IMG/VR virus record: IMGVR_UViG_3300045988_141150
Reading direction: 5' to 3' (one strand)
DNA: 40,350 nucleotides
From: a virus
Every line of letters begins with the position of its first letter. Position 1 is the stretch's first letter. Under the pieces are notes generated by a model. The model did not search any database and had not been told where the DNA came from. It worked only from the letters and a program-made list of their open reading frames with translations. Below, in pieces: positions 1-33,819 of the stretch. Made by a program: the position numbers and the translations under genes.

Positions 1-95
1 CACGAACATTGAACGCATGATTGCGTTCCATGTGGGCGAAAATGACTATGAATTGACCCTGATTCAGAAGCGAAAGCCCAAAAACTGACAAAAAA

Positions 96-130
96 GGGTG
101 AAAAACCGCTGAAAAATGCGGTTTTTCACC
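96..130. other. Inverted repeat GAAAAACCGC-N8-GCGGTTTTTC. It could act as a bidirectional terminator or simply be an RNA hairpin.
   Basis: A 10-bp perfect stem is visible in the sequence, with a T-run on the minus-strand side. Confidence 0.3.
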
Positions 131-205
131 CGAAAACAAGTCAAAAAATGCAAAAAATAATGGTTGAGAGAACGATGGTAAACCTCAATCAATAGAGAGG
201 ATTTT

Positions 206-622
206 GTGTCAATGGAAAAGATTACTATTAAACTACGCCGATTTAAGGACGGTAGACCGCCTGTTTCAATGGAGTTTATGCCCGATTGTGGCGAGAATCT
301 GAAAGACGTTCAAGCGGTCTACTTTTTCAAGTTTTACAACAACAACAAACTTGAATTTAATAAAGTAGGCACTTCCGCAAAAGACGTTGTAGGGCGCTTG
401 CGTGATGAAATCGGCGAGTATTCAAAAAAGTATCCTATCACGCGAGTTGAAATTCATCGAATCCGCTCTTGCGGAGACTACCCCGCCGAGGGCGCGGAAA
501 GCGCGTTGCGTGCGGAACTGATTAGACGCTATCCCAAAGCGTTTAGAAAGAATGACCGCTTTTTTAATGTGGACATTAGCCCCACGGTGTTCGATGAAAT
601 CGTAAGCGCATTTCTTGCATAA
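206..622 (+). CDS. Hypothetical protein of 138 aa. The start is GTG at 206 or ATG at 212.
   Basis: The ORF is in the track. An AGAGAGGA RBS lies upstream and a terminator hairpin lies downstream. Confidence 0.5.
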   Translation: MSMEKITIKLRRFKDGRPPVSMEFMPDCGENLKDVQAVYFFKFYNNNKLEFNKVGTSAKDVVGRLRDEIGEYSKKYPITRVEIHRIRSCGDYPAEGAESALRAELIRRYPKAFRKNDRFFNVDISPTVFDEIVSAFLA

Positions 623-632
623 ATATTCAATC

Positions 633-665
633 AGCAGGTTGACTAAAACCTGCTGATTTTTTTTG
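633..665 (+). terminator. Rho-independent terminator.
   Basis: Hairpin CAGCAGGTT-N7-ACCTGCTG followed by a run of eight T. Confidence 0.7.
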
Positions 666-677
666 TGCATTTTGCCT

Positions 678-707
678 ATTGACAAGCGGGGAAAAGTGTG
701 GTATAAT
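678..707 (+). promoter_or_regulatory. Sigma70-like promoter of family B: TTGACA, an 18-nt spacer, TATAAT.
   Basis: The hexamers match consensus. The upstream element TGTGCATTTTGCCTATTGACA is conserved in three copies, at 667, 784 and 1171. Confidence 0.6.
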
Positions 708-710
708 TGG

Positions 711-737
711 CCGGCCGTAAACTGACGCCACGGCCGG
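711..737 (+). other. GC-rich hairpin immediately downstream of the promoter: CCGGCCG-N13-CGGCCGG.
   Basis: A 7-bp GC stem is visible in the sequence. Confidence 0.5.
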
Positions 738-783
738 AATTTCGTATCAATAGGCAAGTTCAACAATTTTTGAGCGAAATGTT

Positions 784-832
784 TGTGCATTTTGTCTATT
801 GATTTTATCCCGAAAATGTAGTATCTTATAAT
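784..832 (+). promoter_or_regulatory. Second copy of the family-B promoter element, with a poorer -35 (TTGATT/TTTTAT) and TATAAT at 827..832.
   Basis: It shares the upstream motif TGTGCATTTTGTCTATTGA. Spacing to the -10 is ambiguous. Confidence 0.4.
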
Positions 833-856
833 TACAGAAAGGGAGAGTGATACAAA

Positions 857-982
857 ATGCGGTGTGTTGAATGTCCGTACTACTACTGGAATGACTACGT
901 GGAGATGGAAATCTGCCATGCTGACCCCAACTGGCCCGCCCCTTGCGAATACGATGATGAACCAGAGGAGGAAGAAAAATGA
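857..982 (+). CDS. Small acidic Cys-rich protein of 41 aa: MRCVECPYYYWNDYVEMEICHADPNWPAPCEYDDEPEEEEK.
   Basis: ATG follows an AAAGGGAGAG RBS. The ORF is shorter than the track cutoff. It has a paralogue immediately downstream. Confidence 0.45.
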   Translation: MRCVECPYYYWNDYVEMEICHADPNWPAPCEYDDEPEEEEK

Positions 983-1134
983 AACATTATCATTGCCCTG
1001 TAAATGGTTGGGATTGTCCTTACTACACAGACGACCCTCAGCCTTGTATGTGTACGCTGGAAGACCCATTCCACGATTGCGATGATTTCGCATCGATGTG
1101 GGATGAAGATGATGATTACACAGATTATGATTAA
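979..1134 (+). CDS. Small acidic Cys-rich protein of 51 aa: MKHYHCPVNGWDCPYYTDDPQPCMC..., a paralogue of the previous gene.
   Basis: ATG overlaps the upstream stop (ATGA). It shares the C-P-Y-Y and D-P-x-x-P-C motifs and is followed by a terminator. Confidence 0.45.
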   Translation: MKHYHCPVNGWDCPYYTDDPQPCMCTLEDPFHDCDDFASMWDEDDDYTDYD

Positions 1135-1140
1135 AATTTT

Positions 1141-1171
1141 CGGGCAGAAAAATCTGCCCGAATTTTTTTTT
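1141..1171 (+). terminator. Rho-independent terminator.
   Basis: Hairpin CGGGCAGA-N4-TCTGCCCG followed by a run of nine T. Confidence 0.7.
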
Positions 1172-1214
1172 GTGTAAAATGCCTATTGACAAAGCCTGCG
1201 GTTTGTGGTATAAT
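1171..1214 (+). promoter_or_regulatory. Third family-B promoter: TTGACA at 1186..1191, a 17-nt spacer, TATAAT at 1209..1214.
   Basis: Consensus hexamers plus the conserved upstream TGTGTAAAATGCCTATTGACA. Confidence 0.6.
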
Positions 1215-1227
1215 AAAGGCGGGGCTG

Positions 1228-1257
1228 GCCGGGCCGGGGTGGGACGTCCCGGCCCGA
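1228..1257 (+). other. GC-rich hairpin downstream of the promoter. It contains the perfect palindrome GGGACGTCCC.
   Basis: GGGCCGGG...CCCGGCCC stem, visible in the sequence. Confidence 0.5.
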
Positions 1258-1336
1258 TTTCCCGATCGGTATACCCATATGCGAAATTTTTCATACTTCT
1301 AGCACCTCTCCATATGGCCCAAAAAAATCCCGAAAA

Positions 1337-1365
1337 TTGACTTTTTATAAAAAATATGTTATAAT
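1337..1365 (+). promoter_or_regulatory. Copy of the family-A repeated promoter motif: TTGACT, a 17-nt spacer, TATAAT.
   Basis: It matches the recurrent motif TTGAyTTTTTATAAAAAATA-TATAAT. Confidence 0.5.
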
Positions 1366-1475
1366 GATAAAAAAAGACTTTTTTAAGCCCGCGTAGGATC
1401 ATATGCCTTTATGATTAATTAAAAATTGCTTCGCCCTTACATTGTTTCACGCGTATGTTTTCATTCAAAAAAATC

Positions 1476-1504
1476 TTGACATTTTTAAAAAAAAAGTATA
1501 TAAT
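1476..1504 (+). promoter_or_regulatory. Family-A promoter: TTGACA, a 17-nt spacer, TATAAT. It drives the gene at 1536.
   Basis: Consensus hexamers, followed by ATATATAGAAAATAAGAAAAGAGG. Confidence 0.6.
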
Positions 1505-1535
1505 ATATATAGAAAATAAGAAAAGAGGTATTCAT

Positions 1536-1913
1536 ATGGATATGAATGATATTGTTGCTCGTCTGAAAAATGGTGAGGACGCTCAGACTATTGCGGACGA
1601 GATGGAAAATGCTCTGAATGATGCGATTAAGCAGGTGGAGAAGGAAACCAAGCAGGCCGATCGGAAGACCGCGCTCGCGCAAGAAATCGCCGATCGGATT
1701 AACGAGTATGCCGCTCTTAATGGCCACAAGGATTCCGCGTTGACCGCGTCCGATGTGGAGACTATCTTTGCTGAGGTTTACGGTCTTATGAACGGGGTCA
1801 ACGATCTTATTGACGCGCTTTTCCCCAAGAGCACACAGGTAAAGGTTAAGAAGGTCAAGAAAACTGATGATGATGTAATTGCCGAGTTTTTGAACACTTT
1901 CATTAATAAGTGA
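1536..1913 (+). CDS. Hypothetical protein of 125 aa.
   Basis: In frame within track ORF 1455..1913. ATG follows an AAGAGG RBS. A terminator lies downstream. Confidence 0.6.
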   Translation: MDMNDIVARLKNGEDAQTIADEMENALNDAIKQVEKETKQADRKTALAQEIADRINEYAALNGHKDSALTASDVETIFAEVYGLMNGVNDLIDALFPKSTQVKVKKVKKTDDDVIAEFLNTFINK

Positions 1914-1985
1914 ACAATGTGTCGGGTGAGATATTTTTCATCCTAAGAATTGACAATTTCACCAAGAATTGCCTAATATGAAAGA

Positions 1986-2016
1986 AGAGAGACTAAAAAA
2001 AGTCTCTCTTTTTTTT
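1986..2016 (+). terminator. Rho-independent terminator.
   Basis: Hairpin AGAGAGACT-N6-AGTCTCTCT followed by a run of eight T. Confidence 0.7.
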
Positions 2017-2257
2017 AGGTTCGGAGATCGGAGACGGGAAAAAGTGGTTGGTGGTTTAGTAAAACCGATCGGCACCACACTCTCGCAATTTTCGCTATTT
2101 TAGCAATTTCTACAATTATTCCACGTCGTCCGAATTATCCAAACCTTTAATTACTATCCAAAAGCGAATCAACCAATATAGGTCTATTAACGGTCTCTTC
2201 CAGCGTTCCATAGGCAATATCCAACAGCCACACCAATTAAAAACCAAATAATACCAC

Positions 2258-2662
2258 TCATACAAGCAACTCCTCCAACTTTGTCTTAAATACACTATCA
2301 AGAATGTCATCAGCAAGCGTTCTCTTACTGAGATCCACATCTTCTGATCCAGAAGCAACCCCATTAACGAGGGCGCTTGTGTCCGAAGTCGTCTGCGGCT
2401 GCTTCTCAAACGCGGGCTTCACATATCTATATTCATTCTCGATATATTCTATCTTACCTTGCTCAGTAATTCGACCAAGAACCTTACCATTAAAAACCAA
2501 CTTATTACAGTCATCCCAAATAAGATATGCGCCTTGCGTATTCTCCCTATTAAAAAACTCTTTCTTAGTAGTAGCAATTACATTCCAATTGCGGAAAACG
2601 CCTACCTTTTCTCCATTATTCTTTTTCAGTTCTTCAGTTGTAAATTTCATTTCAGTTTTCAA
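2258..2662 (-). CDS. Hypothetical protein of 134 aa.
   Basis: The ORF is in the track and has no in-frame TAG. Confidence 0.5.
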   Translation of the reverse strand: MKTEMKFTTEELKKNNGEKVGVFRNWNVIATTKKEFFNRENTQGAYLIWDDCNKLVFNGKVLGRITEQGKIEYIENEYRYVKPAFEKQPQTTSDTSALVNGVASGSEDVDLSKRTLADDILDSVFKTKLEELLV

Positions 2663-3139
2663 ATCCTTACTTTCATTTCATTTTTTGAATAGTTCCCCGA
2701 GACAAATACCCCTGCTTTACGCAGAAATAACCTACCCCGGTATTCCATTTTAAAATTATATTTCTTTCTTTTATTATTTATATTATAATATATTATTTAT
2801 TATAAATCAAATAAACTCCTAAAGAAATGGATTTTCTTCTATTGATTCAGGTCTATCCTCATATTTCATTTTAATTGGTTTTGTACTATCTGGAACAACA
2901 AAATAAATAGTATTATCTTTCATATATAAATCAGGTTTTATCATATTTGTTTTATCTATCATCTTATCAAACTATTCTTGCGTTCCTCTTACAAATCTTA
3001 CTATTGAAGGATTGCCTTTTCCGCCCCTTACTTCTTCATAATTATATTCCATTACTTTTTACTCCTTTTGCTCTCATTACTGCCCCTGAATTACCCAGCC
3101 GATATATATTAAATATTATCTATTATATATATATTAATA

Positions 3140-3382
3140 GGAACTTTTTGTTCCGAAAATATAGGCAATTCGGAACTAACGGTTCCAAACATAAGGGGCA
3201 TTTTGGAACTAACGGTTCCGCAGTCCCTAATAATTCATCACGTTTTAAATGAATGGAACTAACGGTTCCGAATTTAATGTTAAAATTCAAATTTGTCTTC
3301 TTTCGGAACTTTTTGTTCCACTTTACTATTATTAATTATCTATTTTTGAATAACAACCTATCCCTTCGGAACTTTTTGTTCC
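3140..3382. repeat. Array of six palindromes GGAAC-N4/5-GTTCC. GGAACTTTTTGTTCC occurs three times and GGAACTAACGGTTCC three times.
   Basis: Exact copies sit at 3140, 3172, 3205, 3255, 3305 and 3368. They lie in a 600-bp non-coding gap between two minus-strand genes. Confidence 0.8.
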
Positions 3383-3711
3383 AGAAAATCATTACAATTA
3401 TCATAAAAATCATATTTTCCTTCCGCGGTTTCGACTAAATAGTTATTATTCTTTAAATCATTTATACCAGCATCAATAGCCTTGCGGACTGCCCTTGCTT
3501 CACTCGCCTTTGAATAATCTTTTCCTAACCAATTGGCATAAGCGGTCGGATTCATAGTCCAAACAAAATTATTAGTATTACCAGCTAAATATAAATATAA
3601 TCTTAAACCATTCAATGTTAAACTCCCAGTAGCCTAACCCAACGTAGGAGTGTTTATTGAAGTAAAATTACCACTCTATAAAACTTCTTTATGAATCTTA
3701 AATAGGCTCAT
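3358..3711 (-). CDS. Hypothetical protein of 117 codons. It is readable only with TAG as sense, with two in-frame TAG.
   Basis: It extends track ORF 3358..3615 upstream through two in-frame CTA (minus-strand TAG) codons to an ATG at 3709..3711. Confidence 0.45.
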
Positions 3712-3887
3712 TATTTCTTGCCCATTAATTCATCCAGAGCCTAAACTAACTCCGGAGTCTTTTCATATATCCAACACATAAAGTTAGGCTTCCGCGGATT
3801 TGCGGTTGTTGTTATTGGATATATTCCTTTCTTTTCTAATTCTAAATATATTCTTAATGAATATATAATTTTATTGGCATTTGGCAT
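3711..3887 (-). CDS. Small hypothetical protein of 58 aa with one in-frame TAG.
   Basis: ATG follows an AAAGGAG RBS on the minus strand. Its TAA overlaps the downstream ATG. Confidence 0.4.
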
Positions 3888-3916
3888 ATTAGCGACTCCT
3901 TTAAGCAATTAAAATA

Positions 3917-4474
3917 TTATTCTAAATATTTAAATGGAGCCAATCTTGATACTTTTTTATTATGTTCCGATTGAAAAATATAATCTAATGGAAGTTGAAT
4001 TCCATCTTTAATCGGATAAGCATAAAATTCGAGACAATCTTTACGCTCTCTTAGGTATCCATGATGAACTAATAAGTCAAAATTAAATACAATATCTTCT
4101 ATATCTTTACAATACTAAATATCTGTATTTAAGATATCATTAAAATGAATATAATCTCCATCCTTTTTATTCATTACATAACACCATAACTCAAAGTTAA
4201 TATAATAAGCGAATGTGTATGTAAATAAATAAAGCGGAACTCCATTATATGCTTTATGTGAAGCCAAAGGCGGAATCTCTCTATTTATTTTAATAGGTTT
4301 AGTAAAATCTAATACTGCTCCTGTTTCATATAAATCATAATTATCAGGACTATTTTTTATAACTTGATAATGTTCCTTTTCAGCAATCTATTCAATATCT
4401 TTAACCGCTCTCATACTACCTTTCTTATAATAGTATTTGTCGTGGAAAAAAGTTATCAATTCCTTTTTAGTCAA
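3917..4474 (-). CDS. Hypothetical protein of 185 codons with two in-frame TAG and a TTG start.
   Basis: An AAAAGGAGGAGG RBS on the minus strand precedes a continuous frame that ends in TAA. The two in-frame TAG hide it from the standard-code ORF track. Confidence 0.45.
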
Positions 4475-4871
4475 TTTATAAGTCCTCCTCCTTTTCTTTT
4501 TAATTGTTCTATAATAAATAAAAATTTTTTTAATACTTTTAATTGCGTTTGCCCACAAATTTTTAAATATTTTTCTAAAAGTAATAATTTGTCTTACATT
4601 TTAATACAAAATGGTAAAAATTTTCTACAATTTTAACTAACGCGGTTTTCCCGTCTAATGTTCCTTCTATCCTAAGCATAGCGATCTCTAATATCTACAT
4701 AAGCGACTATGAAAAATTGCCTACAATTTTTACCTATTTTAATTACATTTAATATGTTTGCCCAAGCGCTTTTATTTTTTATTTAATTCAAAAAACATTT
4801 ATTGATTTTTATTAAATTTTAATATATAATATAAATATAAAATAAAGAAAAACTATTAAAGGTGATAAAAA

Positions 4872-5069
4872 ATGCTAGCTAAACTTATTGATAATCAAGG
4901 TCAAACTCATATCATCAATACGACCCATATTCATTCAATTTCCGTAAAGAATTCTGGGTCGGATAAACTTGTGATGGTTTTTTGGGACAATGAAACAAAA
5001 ACCGCGTATTATGTAAAACCCACTGAGTATAGCACTTTTATCAATTCTATTTTTAAGGAGGATAAGTAA
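4872..5069 (+). CDS. Hypothetical protein of 65 aa.
   Basis: The ORF is in the track. An AAAGGTGAT RBS lies upstream, and a family-A-like promoter lies at about 4795 to 4850. Confidence 0.55.
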   Translation: MLAKLIDNQGQTHIINTTHIHSISVKNSGSDKLVMVFWDNETKTAYYVKPTEYSTFINSIFKEDK

Positions 5070-5070
5070 T

Positions 5071-5409
5071 ATGTCTGTTGATTTTGGTTCTAAGCTCGTG
5101 TGTGGCTACAAAGTCTCTAAGAACCTTCTTGAGAACTATGATAATATGGCTGAGGCTATTGAACAGCTTACCGAAGAAGGTTATTGGCATCGCGCAAGCT
5201 GCTATGATAACGACGAAAATCCTATCTTCGGCTATCTTCTCGGTAAGTCTTCCGCGGGCGAGGCCGTCCGCATCGACAACATCTTCATCGCTCCGCAGGA
5301 GTATTATCGCCTTAACGACACAATGAAGGAAGCTTACGCAAAGTTTCTCAAAATCCCCATCGAAAGCCTTGATGATCCCGAGATTTTTCTAATCTCTACA
5401 ATTTCTTAA
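5071..5409 (+). CDS. Hypothetical protein of 112 aa.
   Basis: The ORF is in the track. An AAGGAGGA RBS lies upstream. It is tightly packed with its neighbours. Confidence 0.6.
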   Translation: MSVDFGSKLVCGYKVSKNLLENYDNMAEAIEQLTEEGYWHRASCYDNDENPIFGYLLGKSSAGEAVRIDNIFIAPQEYYRLNDTMKEAYAKFLKIPIESLDDPEIFLISTIS

Positions 5410-5425
5410 AGAAAGGAAAATAAAT

Positions 5426-5680
5426 ATGAAACAATGCCCTGTTTATTATGAAGCACGCTATTGGGACGATTCTGATAAAATGGATAGACTTACGTGCGGT
5501 TTTATCTTCGCGGAAACCCTCGCAGAAGCCGGCCGTTGGGCAGAAGAATATTTCGAAGATCTTATCACTATCGCATTTACCCCTCTTGACGAGGGCCCTT
5601 TGCGCGTCAATCATGATCTTGCTAACAAGATTCTAAAATTTGACGGCGAAGATGCTCCATATTCTGCTAAAGTGCTATGA
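5426..5680 (+). CDS. Hypothetical protein of 84 aa.
   Basis: The ORF is in the track, with an AAAGGAAA RBS. Confidence 0.55.
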   Translation: MKQCPVYYEARYWDDSDKMDRLTCGFIFAETLAEAGRWAEEYFEDLITIAFTPLDEGPLRVNHDLANKILKFDGEDAPYSAKVL

Positions 5681-6120
5681 TGACTTTCCTATGTAAGAAT
5701 TGCGCTTACCTTTTGTCTAATGGTGCTTGTCCAATAGCAGGATATTCACCCGACCCCAATCAACCCGTTTGTAATAGCTTTAGCGACACTAAGTATACTT
5801 GTAAAGTTTGTCATAACCCAATTTTCCATAAGCAAATGGTTATTGACGACAAAGGAAATACTTATTGCGATAAATGTTTCGCAAGACTTAGCACATGCGC
5901 TAATTGTGAACAAAATGTGAACTGCGCATTTAATGATTCTCCCGACACGCCGAAAATGGTCCAAAAGCGAGAAATCGTTGGAAATATGCAAGCCGTCACG
6001 AATGTCCGTAATCCCGACATTGTCGAAAAGACGTGTAAGAAAGGTTGTTCTTGTTTTAACGAAGAAAATGGCTGTATGAGAGATTTCAATTGTTGCGATA
6101 AACTTAACCCTATTCTTTAA
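5677..6120 (+). CDS. Cys-rich zinc-ribbon protein of 147 aa.
   Basis: It has multiple CxxC pairs, such as CKNCAY, CKVCHNP, CDKC and CANC. Its start overlaps the upstream stop. Confidence 0.55.
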   Translation: MMTFLCKNCAYLLSNGACPIAGYSPDPNQPVCNSFSDTKYTCKVCHNPIFHKQMVIDDKGNTYCDKCFARLSTCANCEQNVNCAFNDSPDTPKMVQKREIVGNMQAVTNVRNPDIVEKTCKKGCSCFNEENGCMRDFNCCDKLNPIL

Positions 6121-6134
6121 AGGAGTTTTTAAAT

Positions 6135-6734
6135 ATGTTTATCTTCTTCTTGAAAACGCTGATGGGCGGATTTGTTCTACCGGCCTTAATTATTTTTCTA
6201 ATTTTCGCCATTCATTCTGCTTATCGTAGTTATAGGTATTATAGCACTCTTTCCGATCCTAAGGCCAAGCATTTCCGCAATTGGTCTCATCGCGACCGCG
6301 TTGATATTCTCCGTCAAATTATTCCTGCCTTTTGGATCGGCGTTTGTCTTTACCTCGCGGTAGGCATGTTTGGCGGAGTTATGATGTCTTCGGCTGTTGA
6401 TGACTATTCTAAGTATGATTATACGATTACGGAAGCCCAAGAGCTAACAAGTATAGATAACGATGGCAATATCTATACTTACCGTGCCTTTGAAGGTGAG
6501 ACTGTTTATTACACTTATCTTACACTCAGCACTGATGGCATTATGAGCACTGAGACCCATCCCGTGAATGACACAGTAATTGTTTACTCTAATCAGGTTC
6601 CGCACATTGAAAAGCGTCTCCCACGTTATGGCGATTGGAGAGAGTGGTTCTTTGTCTGCTCTAAGTCAACGCGAGCTTACCTTTATATTCCAGAAGGAAC
6701 AGATATAGCGAAAGATTATATTGTGGAGAAATAA
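6135..6734 (+). CDS. Membrane protein of 199 aa.
   Basis: The N-terminus is hydrophobic and a second TM segment is present. The ORF is in the track. Confidence 0.55.
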   Translation: MFIFFLKTLMGGFVLPALIIFLIFAIHSAYRSYRYYSTLSDPKAKHFRNWSHRDRVDILRQIIPAFWIGVCLYLAVGMFGGVMMSSAVDDYSKYDYTITEAQELTSIDNDGNIYTYRAFEGETVYYTYLTLSTDGIMSTETHPVNDTVIVYSNQVPHIEKRLPRYGDWREWFFVCSKSTRAYLYIPEGTDIAKDYIVEK

Positions 6735-6735
6735 A

Positions 6736-7005
6736 ATGAACAAAGGTGATTTAATTTATTTAAAAATGTCTAACGGCGACAGTGTTTTCTTCAACGTAAA
6801 TGAAATCGTTGCGGTTCTTGTTTCTCATATTGCCAAGGATAATTCAGATGATGACAGTATTTCTACTGAAACTTTTGAAACAAAACTTGACTTTTATATG
6901 AATGATAAATCTCATTATGAATATGTCTTTGATGATAGGTATTCTAATGGTACCGCAATTCTAAAACAACTTAAAAATTTTGTTTCTGAGGAGGCATTCA
7001 AATGA
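6736..7005 (+). CDS. Hypothetical protein of 89 aa.
   Basis: ATG lies in the frame of track ORF 6721..7005, with a GGAGAAATAAA RBS. Confidence 0.55.
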   Translation: MNKGDLIYLKMSNGDSVFFNVNEIVAVLVSHIAKDNSDDDSISTETFETKLDFYMNDKSHYEYVFDDRYSNGTAILKQLKNFVSEEAFK

Positions 7006-7247
7006 TTGTAATTTTACACAACTTCCGCGGTTCTAAGTATCTTATTAATACTAACAATATTAACGCCGTCGAAATTCGACCCGTGAATTCTGAAACTTAT
7101 GCAAAAGAAATCGCGGAAGCAGGCGGTGGTCCGCTCTCGTTTATTTACATTGATTGGCAATTCAATGCTTCAACAAGCATTCTCGTATCTTCTGAAACTG
7201 CCGAAGAGTTTCTCAATCTTTTTGAAGGCGCGATTGAAATCTTTTAA
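7002..7247 (+). CDS. Hypothetical protein of 81 aa.
   Basis: The ORF is in the track and overlaps the upstream stop. Confidence 0.55.
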   Translation: MIVILHNFRGSKYLINTNNINAVEIRPVNSETYAKEIAEAGGGPLSFIYIDWQFNASTSILVSSETAEEFLNLFEGAIEIF

Positions 7248-7305
7248 TTTCTAAATATATTATAACAAAAATTTTGGGTAAAATCAATTAATGGAGGAAT
7301 AATAT

Positions 7306-7521
7306 ATGAAGCATATGCCTGTCTTATTCATTTATGACGCGTTCTGTGATGAGATTTACTGCGCCACAAATATAAGTGGATCTGACGCTCTCGAAATCGC
7401 TATGTCCGCGATCGAAGAGAATGTTGAGAAACGATTCCATTGTCGTAAATTTGATACAAGACTTTACAAAGATGCATTGGAAGATATGATTATTTATTAT
7501 AATTATGCTCCCGTTCTCTAA
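7306..7521 (+). CDS. Hypothetical protein of 71 aa.
   Basis: The ORF is in the track, with a GGAGGAATAATAT RBS. Confidence 0.55.
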   Translation: MKHMPVLFIYDAFCDEIYCATNISGSDALEIAMSAIEENVEKRFHCRKFDTRLYKDALEDMIIYYNYAPVL

Positions 7522-7530
7522 TTTTTAAAA

Positions 7531-7559
7531 GGATTTGCGCAAACCGCAAATCCTTTTTT
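7531..7559 (+). terminator. Rho-independent terminator.
   Basis: Hairpin GGATTTGCG-N5-CGCAAATCC followed by a run of six T. Confidence 0.7.
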
Positions 7560-7610
7560 GATTTTTTATAAAAAATAATATATAATATATATATAAAGTA
7601 AAGAAAGGAA
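7558..7610 (+). promoter_or_regulatory. Family-A promoter: TTGATT, a 17-nt spacer, TATAAT, then ...AAAGTAAAGAAAGG.
   Basis: It matches the consensus motif. Confidence 0.6.
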
Positions 7611-7702
7611 ATAAAAATTATGACTACTTCTAATTCTAAGATTAAAACTCATTCCATTGGCATTCTTTGTGATACGGCGGGGGAGACCATAATTTCTATT
7701 TC

Positions 7703-7942
7703 TTGAATGCATCTGAGGCCGATATGCAGGAAATGTTTATGGAGTATTGTCGAGATATGGTCGATGATAGTCTTATGGAGCATCAGTTCGAGGTAATTCA
7801 GAAAGACTCTGATAATGATTGGTATCTTTATCACGGCGAGATGACTGGTGATTGGACGAAGAGATTCTCTTCTTATCTCGATATGATGAATAACGTCGCC
7901 GATGATGTTTTTATTGATTTCGTTGATGCGATTGAAATGTAA
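7703..7942 (+). CDS. Hypothetical acidic protein of about 79 aa. The start is uncertain.
   Basis: The ORF is in the track. A 28-codon ORF at 7620..7706 sits just after the promoter, so the true start may be the internal ATG near 7727. Confidence 0.4.
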   Translation: MNASEADMQEMFMEYCRDMVDDSLMEHQFEVIQKDSDNDWYLYHGEMTGDWTKRFSSYLDMMNNVADDVFIDFVDAIEM

Positions 7943-7953
7943 GGAGAATAATT

Positions 7954-8235
7954 ATGAAAGAAATTACTTGTTATAAAATTGAAGATGGAGTGATTGGTAA
8001 GTCTTGGACCTTCGCCAATATTTCTGAAGCAGAAATACAAGAGTTATATCTCGCTTTCATTGAAGGCGCAATCGAAGAAGATATTATGGAAACTCAGCGA
8101 ATCGAATACTTCGATCTCCCTCTTCCTAAGCCCGATTGGTGGCGAGTAGAAGAGGATTATCAGAAAGAAGTTGATAGACTTCGTCTTATGGATAGCGAGT
8201 TCTATATGCATAAATTTAATGCTTATACGTTTTAA
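7954..8235 (+). CDS. Hypothetical protein of 93 aa.
   Basis: The ORF is in the track, with an AAGGAGAATAAT RBS. Confidence 0.55.
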   Translation: MKEITCYKIEDGVIGKSWTFANISEAEIQELYLAFIEGAIEEDIMETQRIEYFDLPLPKPDWWRVEEDYQKEVDRLRLMDSEFYMHKFNAYTF

Positions 8236-8246
8236 GGAGAATATAA

Positions 8247-8981
8247 ATGATTCCTGGACTTTATGAAATCTTTAATACGCGCTGGGGTGGTCAGACGGTC
8301 TGGGTATCCTCTGATTGGCATTTTGGCGATTCAGATTTGCGGATTGGCCACCCCAACCGCATTTCTGATGACGATCTTGTAAAACTTTTAAATAGCAAAG
8401 CAGGTCGGAAAGACACACTCATTTGTCTCGGTGATGTAGGTGATATCTCTTATGTGCGGAAACTGCGCGCCGGTTATAAGGTTCTCATCAAGGGCAACCA
8501 CGATGCTGGCTCTGAAAACTATAAGCGCAAAATTGTCAAGAAGAGATTCTCTATGAATCACTATCGAAAGGACGAAGCGCTTATGGAAATGAAGCGTCTT
8601 TATCCTGATTGTAAGTATTTTATTGATTCGGGATTTAATTTCTGCACTCCCTTTGAATATTGGGAGATTACCGCGGATAATGGTCTTTTCGACGAAGTAT
8701 ATGATGGCGTGCTCCTTATTGGTGAGAAACTTATGCTTTCTCACGAACCAATTAAGCAGGACTGGGCTCTCGATCTTCACGGCCATGACCACAATCATAA
8801 AGAGACGGACATCTATCACAAGAATGTTTGTATAGATGTGTTTGGCCCCGCCCCTTTAAACTTAAATCAGTTCATGAAAAATGGCCCGACTGCGAAGATC
8901 GAGAGCGTCCATAGAAAGACGATTGATACCGCGACCAAGAGAAAGCAGAAGCGAGGAGGTAAAAAGATATGGGAGAAATGA
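8247..8981 (+). CDS. Calcineurin-like metallophosphoesterase, a Ser/Thr phosphatase-like protein of 244 aa.
   Basis: The motifs DWHFG, LGDVGD, GNHD and GHDH occur in the canonical order. Confidence 0.7.
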   Translation: MIPGLYEIFNTRWGGQTVWVSSDWHFGDSDLRIGHPNRISDDDLVKLLNSKAGRKDTLICLGDVGDISYVRKLRAGYKVLIKGNHDAGSENYKRKIVKKRFSMNHYRKDEALMEMKRLYPDCKYFIDSGFNFCTPFEYWEITADNGLFDEVYDGVLLIGEKLMLSHEPIKQDWALDLHGHDHNHKETDIYHKNVCIDVFGPAPLNLNQFMKNGPTAKIESVHRKTIDTATKRKQKRGGKKIWEK

Positions 8982-16490: not shown

Positions 16491-16657
16491 TGGATAATTT
16501 GTTTATGTGTTATGCGAATCACACTGAGGAACTTGAAAGAATTATCAAGGAAATTAGTGCGGGCGCGACGATTTTCCAGACTGAGCTCACTTTGACGAAT
16601 ATCGATATGGAATATATCCGACGAGAAGTGGAGAGGAGACTAAATGGCCGAAACTAA
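16490..16657 (+). CDS. Small hypothetical protein of 55 aa.
   Basis: ATG overlaps the upstream TAA. Confidence 0.4.
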   Translation: MDNLFMCYANHTEELERIIKEISAGATIFQTELTLTNIDMEYIRREVERRLNGRN

Positions 16658-18011
16658 TGTAATTGGAATTTTTGAATTCCCACATAATATTTTTGATAAA
16701 ATTTTAGATAGATTTAGTCAAGCAGTTCAAGATAATAAGTATCAGAAACTTGATTATGTCTTTTGGCGTAAACTAAAAACTTCTAAAAATAATGTCAGAA
16801 TTGTTGTCAAATCTGACCTCAATGATAAGATTTTCTTTGATATTTACCCTGATGTTTACACTATAAATTATTCTTTTTTTGTTGATGGCATTGATGGATC
16901 TTTTGGTAAATATCTGCTTGATAATATTTGTAATATTTTTACAGATAAGTATGTAATCAAGTGCTCTGAGAAGTTCTTTGAGTATAAGATGCGTAGAGCG
17001 AAGAAGGCTACTGAAAAGAATAATAATATAAGTAAGCCCGGGGATGGACTTGATTATACCAAAGTATTTGACAAGGGAGTATGGAACACAGAATTTTCTT
17101 GCACGAATACTATTTCTGATGAAGAAGCCCAGAAGATTCTTGGAAAGCTACATACTACACCTATTGTGGCAGTTCCTGATAGCGATTGTAGTCTTCAAAC
17201 TGGGAAGGTTGCTTCGATTAATTCTAATACAATTTTCGCTACTACTCTTACTGATCCTACCACAATTACACTCGGTAGTCAAATTGACGCAATTAAAGAT
17301 AAGTGTGCTATGATTGATACCGATTATATCAATGATCGAATCAATAAAGTTTTGAATGAACAAAATACATTTAACAATAATGTTGATGATAAGAAAGGAA
17401 ATAATAAAATGAAGGCGTTTAATTTTGATTTTGGCCCCTGCACCAATGATAACATTCGTATGTCTATGTATGGTCTGGCTGTGAAGAATGCGGCTGGTAC
17501 TTGGGTTTCTTATAACCCTGAGAGTAAGGAAATTATCGACGTCGATGTCTTCAACTTTGATGGCGGTAAGTTTCTTTACAAGATGCCGGTTGCCATCAAG
17601 GACGTTAAGGTCGGCGACATTGTTATCCACAACCGCAAGGCGATGTTTGTGATTGATGTGTCTGAAACGGGTATGACCGCGATTGATCCGCAGGCCGGTG
17701 AGGAGAAGAAGATTCTGCTTACCAAGTCCCCGTTTGGTTTCAATTTCGCAACGAAGGTCGTGTCTCTCTTTAATATGACTTCTGATGCGCCCACTCCGGA
17801 TGCACCGTTCGGCAATATGCTCCCCTTCCTCATGATGAGTGAGAATAGTGGCGAGTTTGACATGAACACCATGCTGATGCTCTCTATGATGGGCGGTCAG
17901 GGTGGTATGGATTTCTCTAAGAATCCTATGATGATGTATTTCCTTATGAAGGACTCCAAGAACGCGGATGATCTTCTTCCGCTCATGTTCATGGGTAATC
18001 TTTGTAAGTAA
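16644..18011 (+). CDS. Hypothetical protein of 455 aa with a Met-rich C-terminus.
   Basis: The ORF is in the track. Confidence 0.6.
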   Translation: MAETNVIGIFEFPHNIFDKILDRFSQAVQDNKYQKLDYVFWRKLKTSKNNVRIVVKSDLNDKIFFDIYPDVYTINYSFFVDGIDGSFGKYLLDNICNIFTDKYVIKCSEKFFEYKMRRAKKATEKNNNISKPGDGLDYTKVFDKGVWNTEFSCTNTISDEEAQKILGKLHTTPIVAVPDSDCSLQTGKVASINSNTIFATTLTDPTTITLGSQIDAIKDKCAMIDTDYINDRINKVLNEQNTFNNNVDDKKGNNKMKAFNFDFGPCTNDNIRMSMYGLAVKNAAGTWVSYNPESKEIIDVDVFNFDGGKFLYKMPVAIKDVKVGDIVIHNRKAMFVIDVSETGMTAIDPQAGEEKKILLTKSPFGFNFATKVVSLFNMTSDAPTPDAPFGNMLPFLMMSENSGEFDMNTMLMLSMMGGQGGMDFSKNPMMMYFLMKDSKNADDLLPLMFMGNLCK

Positions 18012-18140: not shown

Positions 18141-19745
18141 ATGGCTAATTTATTTGAACTCCTTTCCAAAGAAGATTGCGAAAAGATTGAATGGTATATC
18201 CGTAATTTTGCGGGCCTCGGTGGAGATAGTTCCGATATGAAGGCGTCTCTCGACTACATTCTCCGCTTTTGGGCTTATAATAAGCAGAGTCTTTATAAAA
18301 TGTTGGGAGATAATCTTATCATTTCTCGTAAGGTAAGTTATTCTCGCACTTATGAAGATATGAGTGATGATTTTTATGATTATTTCGGTAGAAATGGTGA
18401 TGGATATGAATTCCGAAATACCTTTAATAATAAGGTAAGAGATCTTTATCTTAAAACAGACATCTCTGATACTCAGTATTTTAATCTGGTAAATCTTTTG
18501 GATGTTGAGCCTTTAATGTCTAACATTTATGATGGGGAATCTTTTAAATTCACTTATAACAATAAAACTCTTATGATTAATAAGGGTATGAAGCTTAGTA
18601 AGATGCTTGGTAAGATGAGTGATATCTTGGAGATTGACCGCGATATCTATGAAAAGTTCCGTATCGCTCATTCTCAGTTCCTTAATCAGAAAAATATCTC
18701 TGGTGAACTCTGTCTTTCTATTCATCCTCTTGACTATATCACTATGAGTGATAATGATTGCGGTTGGGATTCTTGTATGAGATGGCAGAGTGGTGGTGGT
18801 GAATATCGTCAGGGAACCGTTGAGATGATGAATTCTCCCATTATCCTCGAAGCTTACCTTAAATCTGATAAGGATATGGAACTTTGGTATAAGAACGGTC
18901 AGCCTGTTATGTGGAATAGTAAGCGTTGGCGCGAGCTTTTCATTGTAGATAAAAGCCTTATTCTTGGCATTAAGGGTTATCCTTATTGTAATGAAAATCT
19001 TGAAAGCATTTGTCTTGCTTGGATCAAAAAGCTCGCTGAACAGAATCTTGGTTTTGGCCCTTATACCAAGTATTTAAATCAGATTCATAATTACAGTAAT
19101 AACATTATTGGCGAGCTTGACAGAAATATTTATTTCAATCTTGATACCAATTTCATGTATAATGATATCTACTCAGAGCATAATGCTTACGTTTCCACTA
19201 AAATTCCTACGGATGAAAGCGTTAATCTTAACTACTCGGGTGAATCTGAGTGCATGTGTTGCGGAGAACTTCTTGATGATTCTCTTCTCGATGATAGAGA
19301 GAATAACGCGGAAATGACCATTTGCCCAAGTTGTTCGGGCACAGTAAAGTGCGATAAGTGTGGCGATATTGTTTATGTCGATGACACTTATAATGTCGAT
19401 GGAAGAACTTACTGCGCTTATTGTTATGACGAAAACACAGAAGTTTGTCCTTGTTGCGGAGTCCGCAAAGACTATGATGACATGAAGCAAATCCGCCTTC
19501 GATTCCAGAAGAAGCCAGTTGGGTTCTATACGGATATTTGTTGGGATTGCTGTGAGGATAAAAAAGTAAAAACCTTCTTCAGTGGTGAAATTGAAGAAGA
19601 TAGAGATGGTTGGCGCTCCAATTATTATGTCGATGGAGAAACTCTCACTAAAAAGGGCAGAGACCTCTTTAATATTAGTGAAAAGGAATTTATTTCTTGG
19701 GCTATTGGCACCAACCCAAATCAAAGACCTTCTTTGATTTTTTAA
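18141..19745 (+). CDS. Large protein of 534 aa with a C-terminal cluster of CxxC zinc ribbons. It is a paralogue of the gene at 22274..23704.
   Basis: The shared motif is GELCLSIHPLDYITMSDNDCGWDSCM against GTLCFSVHPLDFLSVSENTYNWRSCH. It is followed by WNSKRWRELF against WNSKKWRMLL. Confidence 0.6.
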   Translation: MANLFELLSKEDCEKIEWYIRNFAGLGGDSSDMKASLDYILRFWAYNKQSLYKMLGDNLIISRKVSYSRTYEDMSDDFYDYFGRNGDGYEFRNTFNNKVRDLYLKTDISDTQYFNLVNLLDVEPLMSNIYDGESFKFTYNNKTLMINKGMKLSKMLGKMSDILEIDRDIYEKFRIAHSQFLNQKNISGELCLSIHPLDYITMSDNDCGWDSCMRWQSGGGEYRQGTVEMMNSPIILEAYLKSDKDMELWYKNGQPVMWNSKRWRELFIVDKSLILGIKGYPYCNENLESICLAWIKKLAEQNLGFGPYTKYLNQIHNYSNNIIGELDRNIYFNLDTNFMYNDIYSEHNAYVSTKIPTDESVNLNYSGESECMCCGELLDDSLLDDRENNAEMTICPSCSGTVKCDKCGDIVYVDDTYNVDGRTYCAYCYDENTEVCPCCGVRKDYDDMKQIRLRFQKKPVGFYTDICWDCCEDKKVKTFFSGEIEEDRDGWRSNYYVDGETLTKKGRDLFNISEKEFISWAIGTNPNQRPSLIF

Positions 19746-25378: not shown

Positions 25379-26878
25379 ATGTTTAAAGAAATGGATATTA
25401 GAGCAATATCTTTAGTTTCTTCATGTGGATGTAATTTACATTGTAAATATTGTCTTATTGAGAATACTTTAAATAATTGCTCTGCAAATTTACAACATGA
25501 AACTATTAAAGCTTTAAATGATGGTACTTTTTTAAATAATGTAAAAGGTATTTTTAAACGTTTAAATCTTGATAGATATAAAATAGAATGTTTTACTTTA
25601 TGGGGTCAAGAGCCTACATTGACATTACATCTTCTTACTGATCATTTGGAAGATTGGTTTAATTATTTCCCAAATATTAATCATATTGACTATTCTACTA
25701 ATGGGATGGATTTTCCTGAAAGAACTGTTAATTTTATTAAAAAGGTTGATGAATTAGCAAATAATGAACTTGCTTTAGAAGTTCAATTCTCTTATGATGG
25801 CACTTACTCAACCAATAATATTAGAAATGCTAATAATGAAAAAATCTTTGAGACTGCTTCAACTGTAATTAAAGAATTAAATAAAATTAAATTTCATAAT
25901 GTAAATGTATCTATTCAATTACATGGTGTTCTTTCTGGAGCTTTAATTCATGAACTTAATACAACTCAAAAAGTTCATGATTATTATAAAGATTTAGATA
26001 ATTTTGGATTTGAATTAGCTGATATTAATCTTAATTAGAGAGTTGAAGTAAATAGTAGTGTATCTATTTGCCCTGAGAATCCAAGAGATGGATCAGTTGA
26101 TGAACGTATTGAATATGAGTCTTTCTTACAACGCATTGTTAATATTGATGTAAGTGATTTTCATGACCCACATCTTCCAGTTAGTATTATTATTGGTTAT
26201 CGTCATCTTTATGAAGAAGTATTTTCTGATTTACATGGATTTACTGGAGAAGATCGTCCAATTACGCCCCAAGAATTAATGCGATTAGTTATGGAAGGAA
26301 ATCAAGAAGCAATTACTGTAGCTTCAAGAAATAATTTTTGTAGTGGTAATTTTAATGAATTAAAATTACTTTATGATGGTACTATGATGTCTTGTCAAAA
26401 CTTTATGTTTGATCTTGATGGTAATAATGTTAAAGATGATGGTACTATTGGAGCACAATTGAGAAAAGACACTCGTCGCACTAAAACTGATTGCATTAAT
26501 CTTTTAACTGATAGTGAAGAAGATATTAATAAAGTTATATATAAATATAATATGTATAAAACACATTCCTTCCCATTTATGTTTCAAGCAACTGTAAATA
26601 CTTTACAAATGCTTAATGAATGCAATCAATTAAATTCTATTTACAAGTATAATCCTGATAAATTATTAAGATTGGCATTAATTGCAACAAAAATTGATGC
26701 TTGTACTTATAATAATTTTATTTCTTCTGGTAGCGCGTTGTTAAGAAGTGTAGGCACTTTAAGAACTCAATCAGCACTATTTATGTATGTAGATAGAGAA
26801 AATAATTTACTTAAACCCGAAGAAGAATGGTTCCGAAATACTGAAAATATGAATGAATATAGAGGAGAAAGTAATTAA
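25379..26878 (+). CDS. Radical SAM enzyme of about 499 codons with one in-frame TAG at 26036.
   Basis: It carries CGCNLHCKYC, a CxxxCxxC motif. Track ORFs 25379..26038 and 26279..26878 are in the same frame, joined through a TAG with no TAA or TGA between them. Confidence 0.6.
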
Positions 26879-28281
26879 TGAATATTAGTGAAGGTTGTCA
26901 ATTAGATAATAATAAATATTTTGAAAAATTTATAGATAATTATATTTTTAATAGGGATCACCAAGAGGAAGGATACTGGATTAATGGAGAGTCTTTTGAG
27001 CTTATTATAAGACCCGAATGTAATCAACAATGTGAATATTGTTATGTTGCACGGTATGGAGATAAACTCTATCCGATGGAGAAACGCGCCGATAAGGAAA
27101 CTCTTGTTCATAATACAGATATTATTTTGAATTATATCTTTAAAGAAAGAAAAGTTTTATTTCATGAAATGGAACTTTTTGCTGGAGATTTATTTTATGA
27201 TGATATTGGATTTGAAATTCTCGAATTAATGTTTAAATATTATAAAGAATTATTTGATGAACATCCAAATATTTTTAATTTCCATCCTCGTATTGTAATT
27301 CCTAATAATTTTAGTTTTGCTATTGATGATAAAAAAGCTAAAAAAATGGAAGAGCTTTTAGCTAAATTTAAAACTATCAATATGGAAATAAGCCTTTCTT
27401 GTTCTATAGATGGACCTTATAATAGTGTGCGCGAGCGCGATAAAGATGATAGTTATTATACTAAAATTCTTGAATTCCTTCAAAGAAATCCTTGTGGTAT
27501 TCATCCTATGATTTCTCCAAGTAATATTGAGAGTGCTATTAAGAATTTTGATTGGTGGGACGAACAATATGAAAAGTATAATCTTGCTGGTGAAGACATT
27601 CATGATTTTCAACCTATGTATTTGGAAGTCCGCAATGATGAATGGACTGATGAGAAATTAGATCATTATCTTGAATTTTTAACTCATATGCTTGAAGTAA
27701 GATTTCATAAAAATGGTGAGTCTGTAGATAAATTGGCAAGACATATTTTCTTAGGAGATGGAAAAGAAGGTTCTTTACCTTGTCTTGGTAATTATGACCC
27801 TATTGGATTAACTTCTACTTGGAATAGTGAAGAATATACTTGCGCGATTTCGCATTAGACTTGTCTTTATGTGGCGAGTTTTGAATTTGCGCCTTGCCAT
27901 AGAACTTCTTATCCTCAGTTTCTTGGTGGACGTCTTGATGTAAAAGATGACAAAGTAGTTGGTATTACTGCAATTAATCCTACTGTGTATAGTGTAATTA
28001 AAACGAATAATACACATATGAATATTGGTTGTTTAACTTGTCCTTTTGATCCTTATTGTTTAAAAGGATGTTTAGGCGCTCAGTATGAAGCCACAGGTGA
28101 TTTATTTGTTCCCGGTGAAAGCGTTTGTAAATTACATAAAACACATTTAACTTTTTTAGTAAAGACTTATTGTGAGTTGGGATTAACTAAAATTGCAGTT
28201 GAAAAAAATTATTTTAAGAGTGAAGCAGATAAAGAAAAATGGCTTACTTTATGTCGTAAATTGGGGTATTATAATGATTGA
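26878..28281 (+). CDS. Radical SAM/SPASM-domain enzyme of about 467 codons with one in-frame TAG at 27856.
   Basis: It has an N-terminal CNQQCEYC radical SAM motif. Its C-terminal Cys cluster CLTCPFDPYCLKGCLG...VCKLH has the SPASM pattern. Track ORFs 26878..27858 and 27871..28281 are in the same frame. Confidence 0.6.
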
Positions 28282-28576
28282 AGAAATGAAAAGACAAATT
28301 CAACACTTAGATGATACTTTTGATCCTTCTAATGTTGGAGATTATAAAGATTTATTATATGTAATCTATTTAAATTGGATTGAAAATAATGGAGAAAACG
28401 AAGAAGTCAATTCTCTTATTAACAATTTAATTAAAAGAATTATTGATTCTAGCATTAATGATAATAATAATTGTGATAATTGTAATGAAGATGAAGATCC
28501 TAATATGAGTGAAGATTATTTAATTTATCGCCATTTCTTAGGATATAAAATTCCTGGCTATTGGCGTAATCATTAA
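28274..28576 (+). CDS. Small acidic protein of 100 aa. It could be an accessory protein or a precursor.
   Basis: ATG lies in the frame of track ORF 28193..28576 and overlaps the upstream TGA. Confidence 0.45.
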   Translation: MIEEMKRQIQHLDDTFDPSNVGDYKDLLYVIYLNWIENNGENEEVNSLINNLIKRIIDSSINDNNNCDNCNEDEDPNMSEDYLIYRHFLGYKIPGYWRNH

Positions 28577-29157
28577 TGTTAATTAATTTATATAATGCTC
28601 GTCAAACTTTATTAAGATCAGTAAAGTTTGACGAGCGTGAATGCGATGATATTGTTTTTGGATTAAATTTTCCAAAAGAAATTACTTTTTGCAAAATTGT
28701 AAATAATTCAAATGATATAGAATATTCTTCATTAAATTATCTATATAGTCAATTAAAAGATTTAGAATATAAAGATATAAAAATTATTGAATTAGTTTTT
28801 AATCAAAAACAAAAATTTACGTTTGAATCTACAGTAAAATCTATTTTTTATAGAACAATGTTATATTCAAGTTAGGGACAATTGGAATTTAAATTATATT
28901 TAACTTTACGATTTGAAGAAGAACATCCAATTATTTACGATAAAGAAGAATAGATTTTAAAGTGTGACAAAAATTGTAAACAGTTAAATAGAAAAATACA
29001 TCGTTGTGAATTTTTTCATAGTGATTTAAATGATATAAATGAAATTTGTACGGAATGTTTTTTGTAGGAAAGAGATAACCAAATAAAAGAATTGGTTAAT
29101 TATAATAGAGATATTATAAATGTTTTGGAGAATAAATATGGAAATAGATAGAACTAA
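28576..29157 (+). CDS. Hypothetical Cys-containing protein of about 193 codons with four in-frame TAG.
   Basis: It extends track ORF 28576..28875 through TAG codons to a TAA at about 29155. Confidence 0.4.
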
Positions 29158-31216: not shown

Positions 31217-31391
31217 AACTTATCAAGAATATAAAGAAAAAGTTTATTTTCTTCTAAATAATTTTTTAGATTTTACTAAAGGAGATAAACCTTATTTATT
31301 TAATATGCCTTCAAAATTAGGCAATCTTCCTAATCTAAATGAATATTTATATTTTTGTTTTAATAAATCTGATGCAGGAGAAAATAAATGA
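31209..31391 (+). CDS. Small protein of 60 aa.
   Basis: ATG follows an AAAGGAGAGAG RBS, in the frame of track ORF 31188..31391. It ends in TGA. Confidence 0.45.
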   Translation: MIETYQEYKEKVYFLLNNFLDFTKGDKPYLFNMPSKLGNLPNLNEYLYFCFNKSDAGENK

Positions 31392-31930
31392 GGTTTACTG
31401 ATTATCATTTTGGATAGGCAGAGTCTGACTTTTGGACTTTATTAAAAGAATTTCTATTAAGGTTTGATCCCAATAGTATTTATGATTTTTGGATTTTATT
31501 TATTTATTTTTAGTTAGGTATTATTAGAAAAGATAGATTTATCATTTATTAGGTATAGTATATTTTAAAAGAAAAAATAGATTTTGAAGAAATTAATGAA
31601 GTAAATTTTAATACAATTATTCCAATAGAAAAGATAAATTTATCTAGTTTAAAAGATTGTATTTGGATAAGCTATTGGATTTGTTAGTATAATTATTAGA
31701 ATGATGAAAATTTAATTTTAATTTATAGTGAGAAAATATTTAATAATCTTACTAATATTTTTGAGCCGGATATTGTTATAGATATTCCAATAGTGTAGTA
31801 GAGTAATAAAATATGTAAAATGTGCGGTTTAGAGTCTAAATCTAATGGATAGAATATACCATTTTTTAAAATAAATGATAATAAATATTTATGTCCTAAT
31901 TGTTATTATTTATTAAAATTAAATGAATAA
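31388..31930 (+). CDS. Hypothetical protein of 180 codons with a C-terminal CxxC...CxxC zinc ribbon. It has about 10 in-frame TAG.
   Basis: ATG overlaps the upstream TGA. The frame is free of TAA and TGA for 543 nt in a region of about 25% GC. It is invisible to the standard-code track. Confidence 0.4.
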
Positions 31931-32023
31931 TTATTAAAACCTACTTTTATAGTAGGTTTTAATTGATTTTTAATAAAAAATAATGTATTATAATTATAAG
32001 ATAAATGAAAAGGGTGTGTTTAT

Positions 32024-33808: not shown

Positions 33809-33819
33809 TAGGAGATTAT

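Follow-up and report, generated by a model that had tools for sequence, protein, structure and literature searches.

Organization of the dyad array

The window analyzed here is a 40,350-bp stretch of viral DNA (IMG/VR record IMGVR_UViG_3300045988_141150), and the element under study is a compact array of dyad-symmetric sites, GGAAC-N5-GTTCC, situated in and just downstream of a minus-strand open reading frame (ORF) designated ORF B, a putative replication initiator gene. With TAG read as glutamine, as discussed below, the locus comprises the following features, listed in order of position:

2807–3052, minus strand: ORF A, 81 aa, two in-frame TAG codons; downstream neighbour bounding the putative origin region
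3102–3139: AT-rich tract, putative DNA-unwinding element, 37 of 38 bp A/T with many TA steps
3140–3154: dyad S1, GGAACTTTTTGTTCC, the distal site, directly adjoining the AT-rich tract
3172–3186: dyad S2, GGAACTAACGGTTCC, intergenic
3205–3219: dyad S3, GGAACTAACGGTTCC, intergenic
3255–3269: dyad S4, GGAACTAACGGTTCC, intergenic, 11 bp beyond the ORF B stop codon
3280–3711, minus strand: ORF B, 143 aa, four in-frame TAG codons; putative origin-binding initiator
3305–3319: dyad S5, GGAACTTTTTGTTCC, within ORF B, coding for E132–P136 (EQKVP)
3368–3382: dyad S6, GGAACTTTTTGTTCC, within ORF B, coding for E111–P115 (EQKVP)
3711–3887, minus strand: small ORF, 58 aa, its stop overlapping the ORF B start (TAATG); weakly DUF5659-like (E 0.052, below threshold)
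3917–4474, minus strand: ORF C, 185 aa, two in-frame TAG codons; first gene of the leftward operon

A pattern search for GGAAC-N(4,5)-GTTCC returned exactly six matches in the window, starting at 3140, 3172, 3205, 3255, 3305 and 3368 and contained within 243 bp, against a chance expectation of 0.01; none of 100 dinucleotide-preserving shuffles reached six. The start-to-start distances are 32, 33, 50, 50 and 63 bp, and all six spacers share one orientation, reading TTTTT at 3140, 3305 and 3368 and TAACG at 3172, 3205 and 3255. The first-pass annotation, which had listed six palindromes with spacers of four or five nucleotides in a 600-bp non-coding gap, was right about the six exact copies and the three copies per spacer sequence, but the spacer is 5 nt in every site. 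The gap itself shrinks to an intergenic stretch of 227 bp (3053–3279) holding four dyads, since reading TAG as sense restores genes that standard-code gene calling fragments, and the 3′ end of ORF B contains the dyads at 3305 and 3368, each translated as EQKVP (G|GAA|CAA|AAA|GTT|CC). The earlier non-coding assignment thus shows how standard-code gene calling can mislead at such a locus. No further exact site was found elsewhere in the window, and allowing one or two arm mismatches added 10 scattered matches where about 7 are expected. The motif is therefore confined to the array rather than spread through the genome at similar density.

Conservation of the dyads in related loci

Close relatives for which DNA was available comprise the loci L164–L171, L119, L111 (the same contig as L169) and L107, with ORF B identities of 46–97%. 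Each carries 6–12 GGAAC-N5-GTTCC dyads in an array that extends from the 3′ end of the ORF B homologue into the downstream DNA. Across these relatives the arms are invariant; the spacers include AAAAA, TTTTT, AAATT, AATTT, CGTTA, CAAAA, AGAAA and TAAAA, and their orientation flips inside individual arrays (AAAAA/TTTTT, AAATT/AATTT). The proposal that the two spacer sequences of the window mark two kinds of site is not supported by this comparison, in which the spacer varies freely and the arms never change.

The sites that lie inside genes were analyzed from the protein side. In a peptide-first, non-circular test, 13 of 13 EQxVP peptides located by translation were found to use the exact dyad, including the G that closes the preceding codon; elsewhere in the same genes GTT accounts for only 43% of valine codons. 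One in-gene dyad of L171 is read in a second frame, as GTICS. Among 158 family proteins, 23 contain EQxVP (54 instances), eight carry GTx[CSRG]S in the tail, and five have both, and identical copies of the dyad also occur in non-coding DNA. Because EQxVP is encoded by the exact dyad, a second frame is used as well, and the same copies recur outside genes, the object of selection is the DNA dyad and not the peptide, with the sequence of the tail following from the dyad.

Homologues of ORF B were found solely in metagenomes and metagenome-assembled genomes (MAGs). The contig of L170 (CAMELE010000001.1, 163,874 bp), from a MAG labelled 'uncultured Mollicutes bacterium', is 95% identical to window positions 1–8249. 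It runs on past window position 1 with unrelated sequence that includes an ORF for a DnaQ-like exonuclease, so the start of the window is either the end of a prophage or an arbitrary cut. Exact-motif scans of IMG/VR returned mostly single chance matches, true relatives being limited to L107, L111/L169 and L119, and the exact motif was not found in the 8 million papers searched.

Some features of the relatives have no counterpart in the window. In both L167 (246–260) and L168 (359–373), where the operon begins with the ORF C homologue, an extra GGAAC-N5-GTTCC dyad precedes the start of that gene by about 30 nt; this site, absent from the window, may be an autoregulatory operator. In L164, tandem copies of about 61 bp (aataccccgtaggcagggaggatcgtagatccgagtcgcctgcctgcgtggcgaacgcaa) occupy 6745–6901, to the end of the 180-kb contig and about 350 bp past the array.

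Covariation of protein and site in distant homologues

Distant homologues whose recognition helices differ show the same 5-5-5 geometry (5-bp arms around a 5-bp, mostly A/T spacer) in arrays located in and just after their own genes, with different arms:

L172: arms GGATA/TRTCC, 11 copies
L174: arms TGTAC/GTACA, 5 copies
L175: arms CGAC/GTCG, 13 copies
L177: arms GTCAY/RTGAC, 14 copies
L178: arms GTAAG/CTTAC, 6–7 copies

That the arms change together with the recognition helix is the strongest argument that proteins of the ORF B family bind these arrays. The homologue of L174, 359 aa long, contains all five of its dyads mid-gene (codons ~103–138), between the winged-helix domain, which they directly follow, and an AT-rich stretch that stays in frame. 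Its gene is flanked on one side by an integrase and a GIY-YIG gene and on the other by RuvC, a typical replication/recombination module.

The AT-rich tract adjoining the array

The distal dyad S1 directly abuts the AT-rich tract at 3102–3139, and only one 40-mer in the window is less stable than the one beginning at 3101 (nearest-neighbour dG −32.6). The first 12 bp of the tract beside S1, TATTAATATATA, are conserved in relatives, and the junction GGAACAAAAAGTTCC+TATTAATATATA, given on the gene-sense strand as the last dyad followed by the box, occurs in the window and in L164, L167, L168, L169, L171 and L107. A very similar box, TAATATATA, follows the arrays with different arms in L172, L177 and L178. 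Judged by its composition and conservation, the tract is a putative unwinding element. Its identification as a copy of the repeated promoter cassette described below was considered and rejected: the core does not match, and a consensus scan called no minus-strand promoter there.

In several relatives the AT box is followed by a long hairpin with a 12–16-bp stem (L169 4868–4915, L171 6672–6718, L172 2518–2562, L177 2282–2345, L178 2171–2210). The stems vary, and the loop keeps GCTTCGC, the complement of the stable DNA mini-hairpin GCGAAGC. These post-array hairpins are not typical terminators, as they are not followed by a T-run. The hairpins of L167 and L168 have no GCTTCGC loop, and the window has no hairpin after the AT tract.

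The ORF B protein

ORF B by itself has no Pfam match and no PHROG match above threshold, and belongs to no curated family. A profile built from its close family identified 249 homologues in a library of 1.8 billion proteins, with E-values down to 1e-11 for HTH_36-positive members. The families used as reference for winged-helix phage initiators were Pfam HTH_36 and PHROGs 270, 186 and 678. Among 123 aligned homologues, Pfam matches were to HTH_36 (52), TrmB (20), MarR_2 (13), DnaD_N (11), Rep3_N (4) and Phage_rep_O (PF04492; 2, both sub-threshold), and PHROG matches were to 'replication initiation protein' (phrog_270; 52), 'DnaD-like helicase loader' (43) and 'replication initiation O-like' (28); only about four matched a 'transcriptional regulator' PHROG.

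AlphaFold modeling from the 123-sequence alignment gave a predicted local distance difference test (pLDDT) score of 81.6 overall and above 90 for residues 1–105; this model was used in place of an earlier AlphaFold2 model from eight sequences, which at pLDDT 61 was too poor. According to the model, ORF B is a single winged-helix protein (residues ~1–105, with helix 55–62, recognition helix 69–88 and wing strands within 92–103) with a disordered tail (~106–143). The core idea of the first-pass annotation, an array of sites for a dimeric DNA-binding protein, fits well with this neighbour, whose binding to the array is predicted. Rep_3-type initiators and RctB are among the best structural matches. 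A fold search of BFVD yielded only generic 'HTH domain' matches, and no significant PDB sequence match was obtained with the profile of either ORF B or ORF C. Although the tails differ, the extreme C-terminus is conserved across the family as [G/D]F-x-F or W[N/D]F (FEF, FVF, FIF, YGF, FGF, WNF), with ORF B itself ending in FEF (3280–3300), and could serve as a short docking motif.

A probable replication origin

The uniqueness of the array, its conservation at the DNA level, the covariation of protein and site, the origin-like layout, the initiator-like homologues and the replication module around L174 together lead us to conclude that the array is probably the initiator-binding part of a lambda-type replication origin of a phage (prophage), with ORF B as its cognate initiator. 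Among the three options left by the first-pass annotation, namely repressor, partition protein and replication initiator, the last is thus favoured by the initiator-like remote homologues, the adjoining AT-rich tract and the arms that change with the recognition helix.

We propose that winged-helix ORF B dimers would bind each GGAAC-N5-GTTCC dyad, the protein recognizing half-sites separated by one helical turn and ignoring the A/T-rich spacer. With all six sites filled, a nucleoprotein complex could form and destabilize the adjoining TA-rich tract at 3102–3139, onto which the host replication machinery would then be loaded. Candidates for recruiting it, and with it a helicase, are the C-terminal [G/D]F-x-F or W[N/D]F motif of ORF B, the co-transcribed ORF C and the small DUF5659-like ORF. 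Transcription of the operon would cross the array towards the AT tract, as transcription from pR passes over ori-lambda.

A number of observations weigh against this interpretation. No helicase, loader or primase was recognized in the window, nor is there a canonical Walker A motif ([AG]xxxxGK[ST]) in any window ORF of at least 80 aa, even with TAG read through; ORF B itself has neither a folded C-terminal domain nor a recognizable helicase-recruiting domain. Comparison of the family profile with lambda O by hhalign was not significant (E 0.14, probability 0.4%), so ORF B is not assigned to Phage_rep_O. Searches of cultured phages and PLSDB plasmids (72,556 plasmids) by megablast and tblastn found no homologue, leaving the family with no experimentally characterized relative. 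About a dozen AT-rich 40-mers of this AT-rich genome, the AT tract among them, are comparably unstable, several promoter-associated tracts being nearly equal, and no DnaA boxes occur near the array. Cumulative GC skew, proposed earlier as a check for an origin near 3.2 kb, is uninformative and was set aside as origin evidence, as it follows gene orientation: its minimum is a plateau at 4.8–6.6 kb that tracks the switch of gene strand. Helical phasing of the sites is weak (R 0.33, from non-independent data). Finally, binding to repeats close to its own gene would also be compatible with a winged-helix transcription factor, a point taken up below.

A bolder extension of the origin model can be offered tentatively, and we consider it possible but doubtful. 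Here the iterons would be used twice, for binding the initiator and for coding its disordered tail in two frames (EQxVP and GTxCS), and ORF B would be a minimal initiator consisting of one winged-helix domain and a short linear docking motif, through which the host replisome would be recruited directly, with no partner of the lambda-P/DnaC type. If so, the length of the tail would be set by the evolution of the DNA sites, and the approximately 250 homologue clusters with arrays of their own would amount to a natural read-out of how the recognition helix specifies the dyad.

Comparison with known systems

In phage lambda, ori-lambda lies inside gene O (PMC7466680; NC_001416 annotation). The array described here resembles it in its clustered dyad-symmetric initiator sites, which are A-rich at the centre (TCCCTC-AAAAC-GAGGGA in lambda, GGAAC-AAAAA-GTTCC here), in having an AT-rich tract on one side of the cluster, and in that transcription of the replication operon passes through the origin. 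The likeness is partial as regards the placement of sites in the initiator's own coding sequence, after the N-terminal winged helix and coding for a flexible segment: only two of the six sites are in the gene here, the other four and the AT tract lying downstream. The distant member L174 reproduces the lambda layout exactly, with five dyads mid-gene followed by an AT-rich stretch. Unlike lambda O, the 143-aa ORF B lacks a folded (P-binding) domain at its C-terminus and has no significant sequence similarity to Phage_rep_O, and no gene for a P/DnaC-like loader was found in the window; the spacing is irregular, at 32–63 bp compared with ~20–24 bp in lambda, and the phage, which reads TAG as glutamine, has an AT-rich, Mollicutes-like gut bacterium as its host.

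Initiators of the DnaD-like/replisome-organizer type are represented in phages of Firmicutes by SPP1 G38P, where oriL lies in gene 38. ORF B differs from them in that it has no C-terminal DnaD/DnaB_2 domain, its matches being below every threshold, and no adjacent helicase or loader genes. By analogy, the element would work like the ori-lambda/O and DnaD-type replisome-organizer systems minus their helicase-recruiting half.

With the Rep_3-type plasmid initiators (pPS10 RepA, F RepE, R6K pi) and Vibrio RctB, ORF B shares a winged-helix fold, a repeat array beside an AT-rich unwinding element and, in relatives, a possible autoregulatory site upstream of the operon. Those proteins, however, have two winged-helix domains and bind directional repeats of ~19–22 bp as monomers, using inverted repeats for repression only, whereas ORF B has a single such domain and its putative sites are all 15-bp dyads. 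DnaA boxes and plasmid homologues are also missing here, and Rep3_N was matched by only four of the 123 homologues.

The most likely assessment is therefore of a known design, the lambda-like origin, in a new example, to which are added a possible minimal initiator whose tail is encoded, in two frames, by its own binding sites, and matched pairs of protein and site across the family. A probable origin and its initiator can thus be located in a TAG-recoded prophage that is uncultivated, resides in a Mollicutes-like gut bacterium and has almost no gene of recognizable function, and the fragment at ~3.05–4.9 kb is a concrete candidate for a replicon or vector part. The pairs of protein and arm sequence (GGAAC, GGATA, CGAC, GTAAG, GTCAY, TGTAC), which come at no further cost, may serve work on winged-helix specificity as well as the annotation of metagenomic phage origins.

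Alternative explanations

The array could instead be a transcriptional operator or roadblock through which ORF B regulates itself or read-through into ORF A and the downstream genes, with no role in replication. Some family members do match MarR_2 or TrmB models and a few match 'transcriptional regulator' PHROGs, but initiator annotations far outnumber these among the homologues. The extra dyad about 30 nt upstream of the first operon gene in L167 and L168 fits autoregulation, which is compatible with the origin model as well, since initiators commonly autoregulate; in the window, no dyad occurs in the divergent promoter region (4475–4871) even with two mismatches allowed, and this also tells against the repressor suggested earlier. 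Three of the dyads were flagged as weak terminator-like sites. However, 6–14 sites spread over 250–400 bp at the 3′ end of a gene do not form an operator layout, and the conserved distal TA-rich box is not of the genome's own promoter class, no minus-strand promoter having been called. We consider a purely regulatory role unlikely. More improbable still is a maintenance element of a plasmid prophage, that is, a partition centromere or an incA-like copy-control (handcuffing) array in place of a lytic origin. Repeated dyads beside a gene for a small DNA-binding protein resemble centromere arrays, and in P1 incA lies downstream of repA; in addition, L172 and L177 have a ribbon-helix-helix (RHH, CopG-like) gene ahead of the module, and no integrase was recognized in the window. 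Nevertheless, a partition system is difficult to reconcile with the lack of a ParA/ParM-type NTPase in the window, where no ORF of at least 80 aa contains a Walker A motif and the neighbours have no Pfam match. The element also lies inside MAG contigs of 164 kb and 180 kb, suggesting integration, and is without homologues in the 72,556 plasmids, and a copy-control role would in any case extend the origin/initiator model.

Each dyad can also form a 5-bp stem with a 5-nt loop, so that RNA or single-stranded DNA hairpins (terminators, or signals for RNA stability or processing) were considered, together with a terminase recognition (pac/cos) site. The terminator-like flags on three dyads are in line with the former, and for the latter it may be noted that small terminases, too, recognize repeats located within or close to the genes that encode them and that a weakly TerS-like gene lies at ~1549–1913. 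The stems are weak, however (−4.1 to −4.6 kcal/mol), no Rfam match was obtained, and there is no compensatory variation within lineages: the arms are strictly conserved and change as a block with the protein. The flips of spacer orientation would alter an RNA loop but not a dimer site. Finally, the ORF B homologues match initiators and not terminases, and do not lie beside structural genes, which makes this the least credible of the readings, barely plausible in our view. The preferred interpretation thus remains a phage origin with ORF B as its initiator.

Reassignment of TAG and the neighbouring genes

Under the standard code the ORFs of this genome are fragmented; once TAG is read through, both the late region and the minus-strand module at 2–4.5 kb contain long ORFs. 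TAG is used as a sense codon in two regions, 2807–4474 (ORFs A, B and C and the small ORF) and the late genes at 25379–38128. One TAG of ORF B aligns with a conserved glutamine of its homologues (LGqA versus LGQA), read-through of ORF B restores a C-terminus that is conserved in TAG-free homologues, and CAG is nearly absent from the AT-rich genes that contain TAG (2–8 in-frame TAG codons each); the genes at 16–24 kb are free of TAG and use CAG. Because of this alignment, the restored C-terminus and the scarcity of CAG in TAG-containing genes, the assignment of TAG to glutamine in this genome is well supported. An odd tRNA located beside a tRNA-Trp, at 38208–38278, has a 6-nt anticodon loop, CTTTAA, and was called 'Lys|Stop (tt)' by ARAGORN; it may be a suppressor related to the recoding of TAG, though it has no evident CTA anticodon.

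ORF C is kept upstream of ORF B in the close relatives. It has no Pfam, PHROG or PDB match and its homologues are without annotation; a similarity of its N-terminus to HU was dismissed as not significant (E ~0.9). More generally, Pfam and PHROG scans of ORFs A, B and C and their neighbours gave nothing useful. All loci examined have a small ORF of 58–66 aa directly 5′ of the ORF B homologue, overlapping its start in several, including the window. Its positions in the distant loci are as follows:

L172: 1654–1848
L174: 2768–2959
L175: 97–297
L177: 1329–1508
L178: 1316–1498

The weak DUF5659 match is limited to the small ORF of the window and two ORFs of L174. In L172 and L177 the pair formed by the small ORF and the ORF B homologue is preceded by an RHH gene (CopG-like, DUF6290).

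Other features of the genome

The two large ORFs at 16644–18011 and 18141–19745, where terminase and portal would be expected, have no Pfam or PHROG match. The genome also contains about 13 near-identical promoter cassettes of the sigma-70 type, all on the plus strand and each just upstream of a gene. The layout of the cassette is TTGAYW, 17–18 nt, TATAAT-ATATATA and then gaaagttaagaaagga, a ribosome-binding site, and its cores are located at the following positions:

1498, 4824, 7580, 10502, 11588, 15825, 15940, 18089, 38159, 38419, 38661 and 38749, plus strand: promoter cassette cores
26545, plus strand: weaker promoter cassette core

Fragments of the same cassette also occur in related contigs. 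Across the window, GC content ranges from 20% to 43%.
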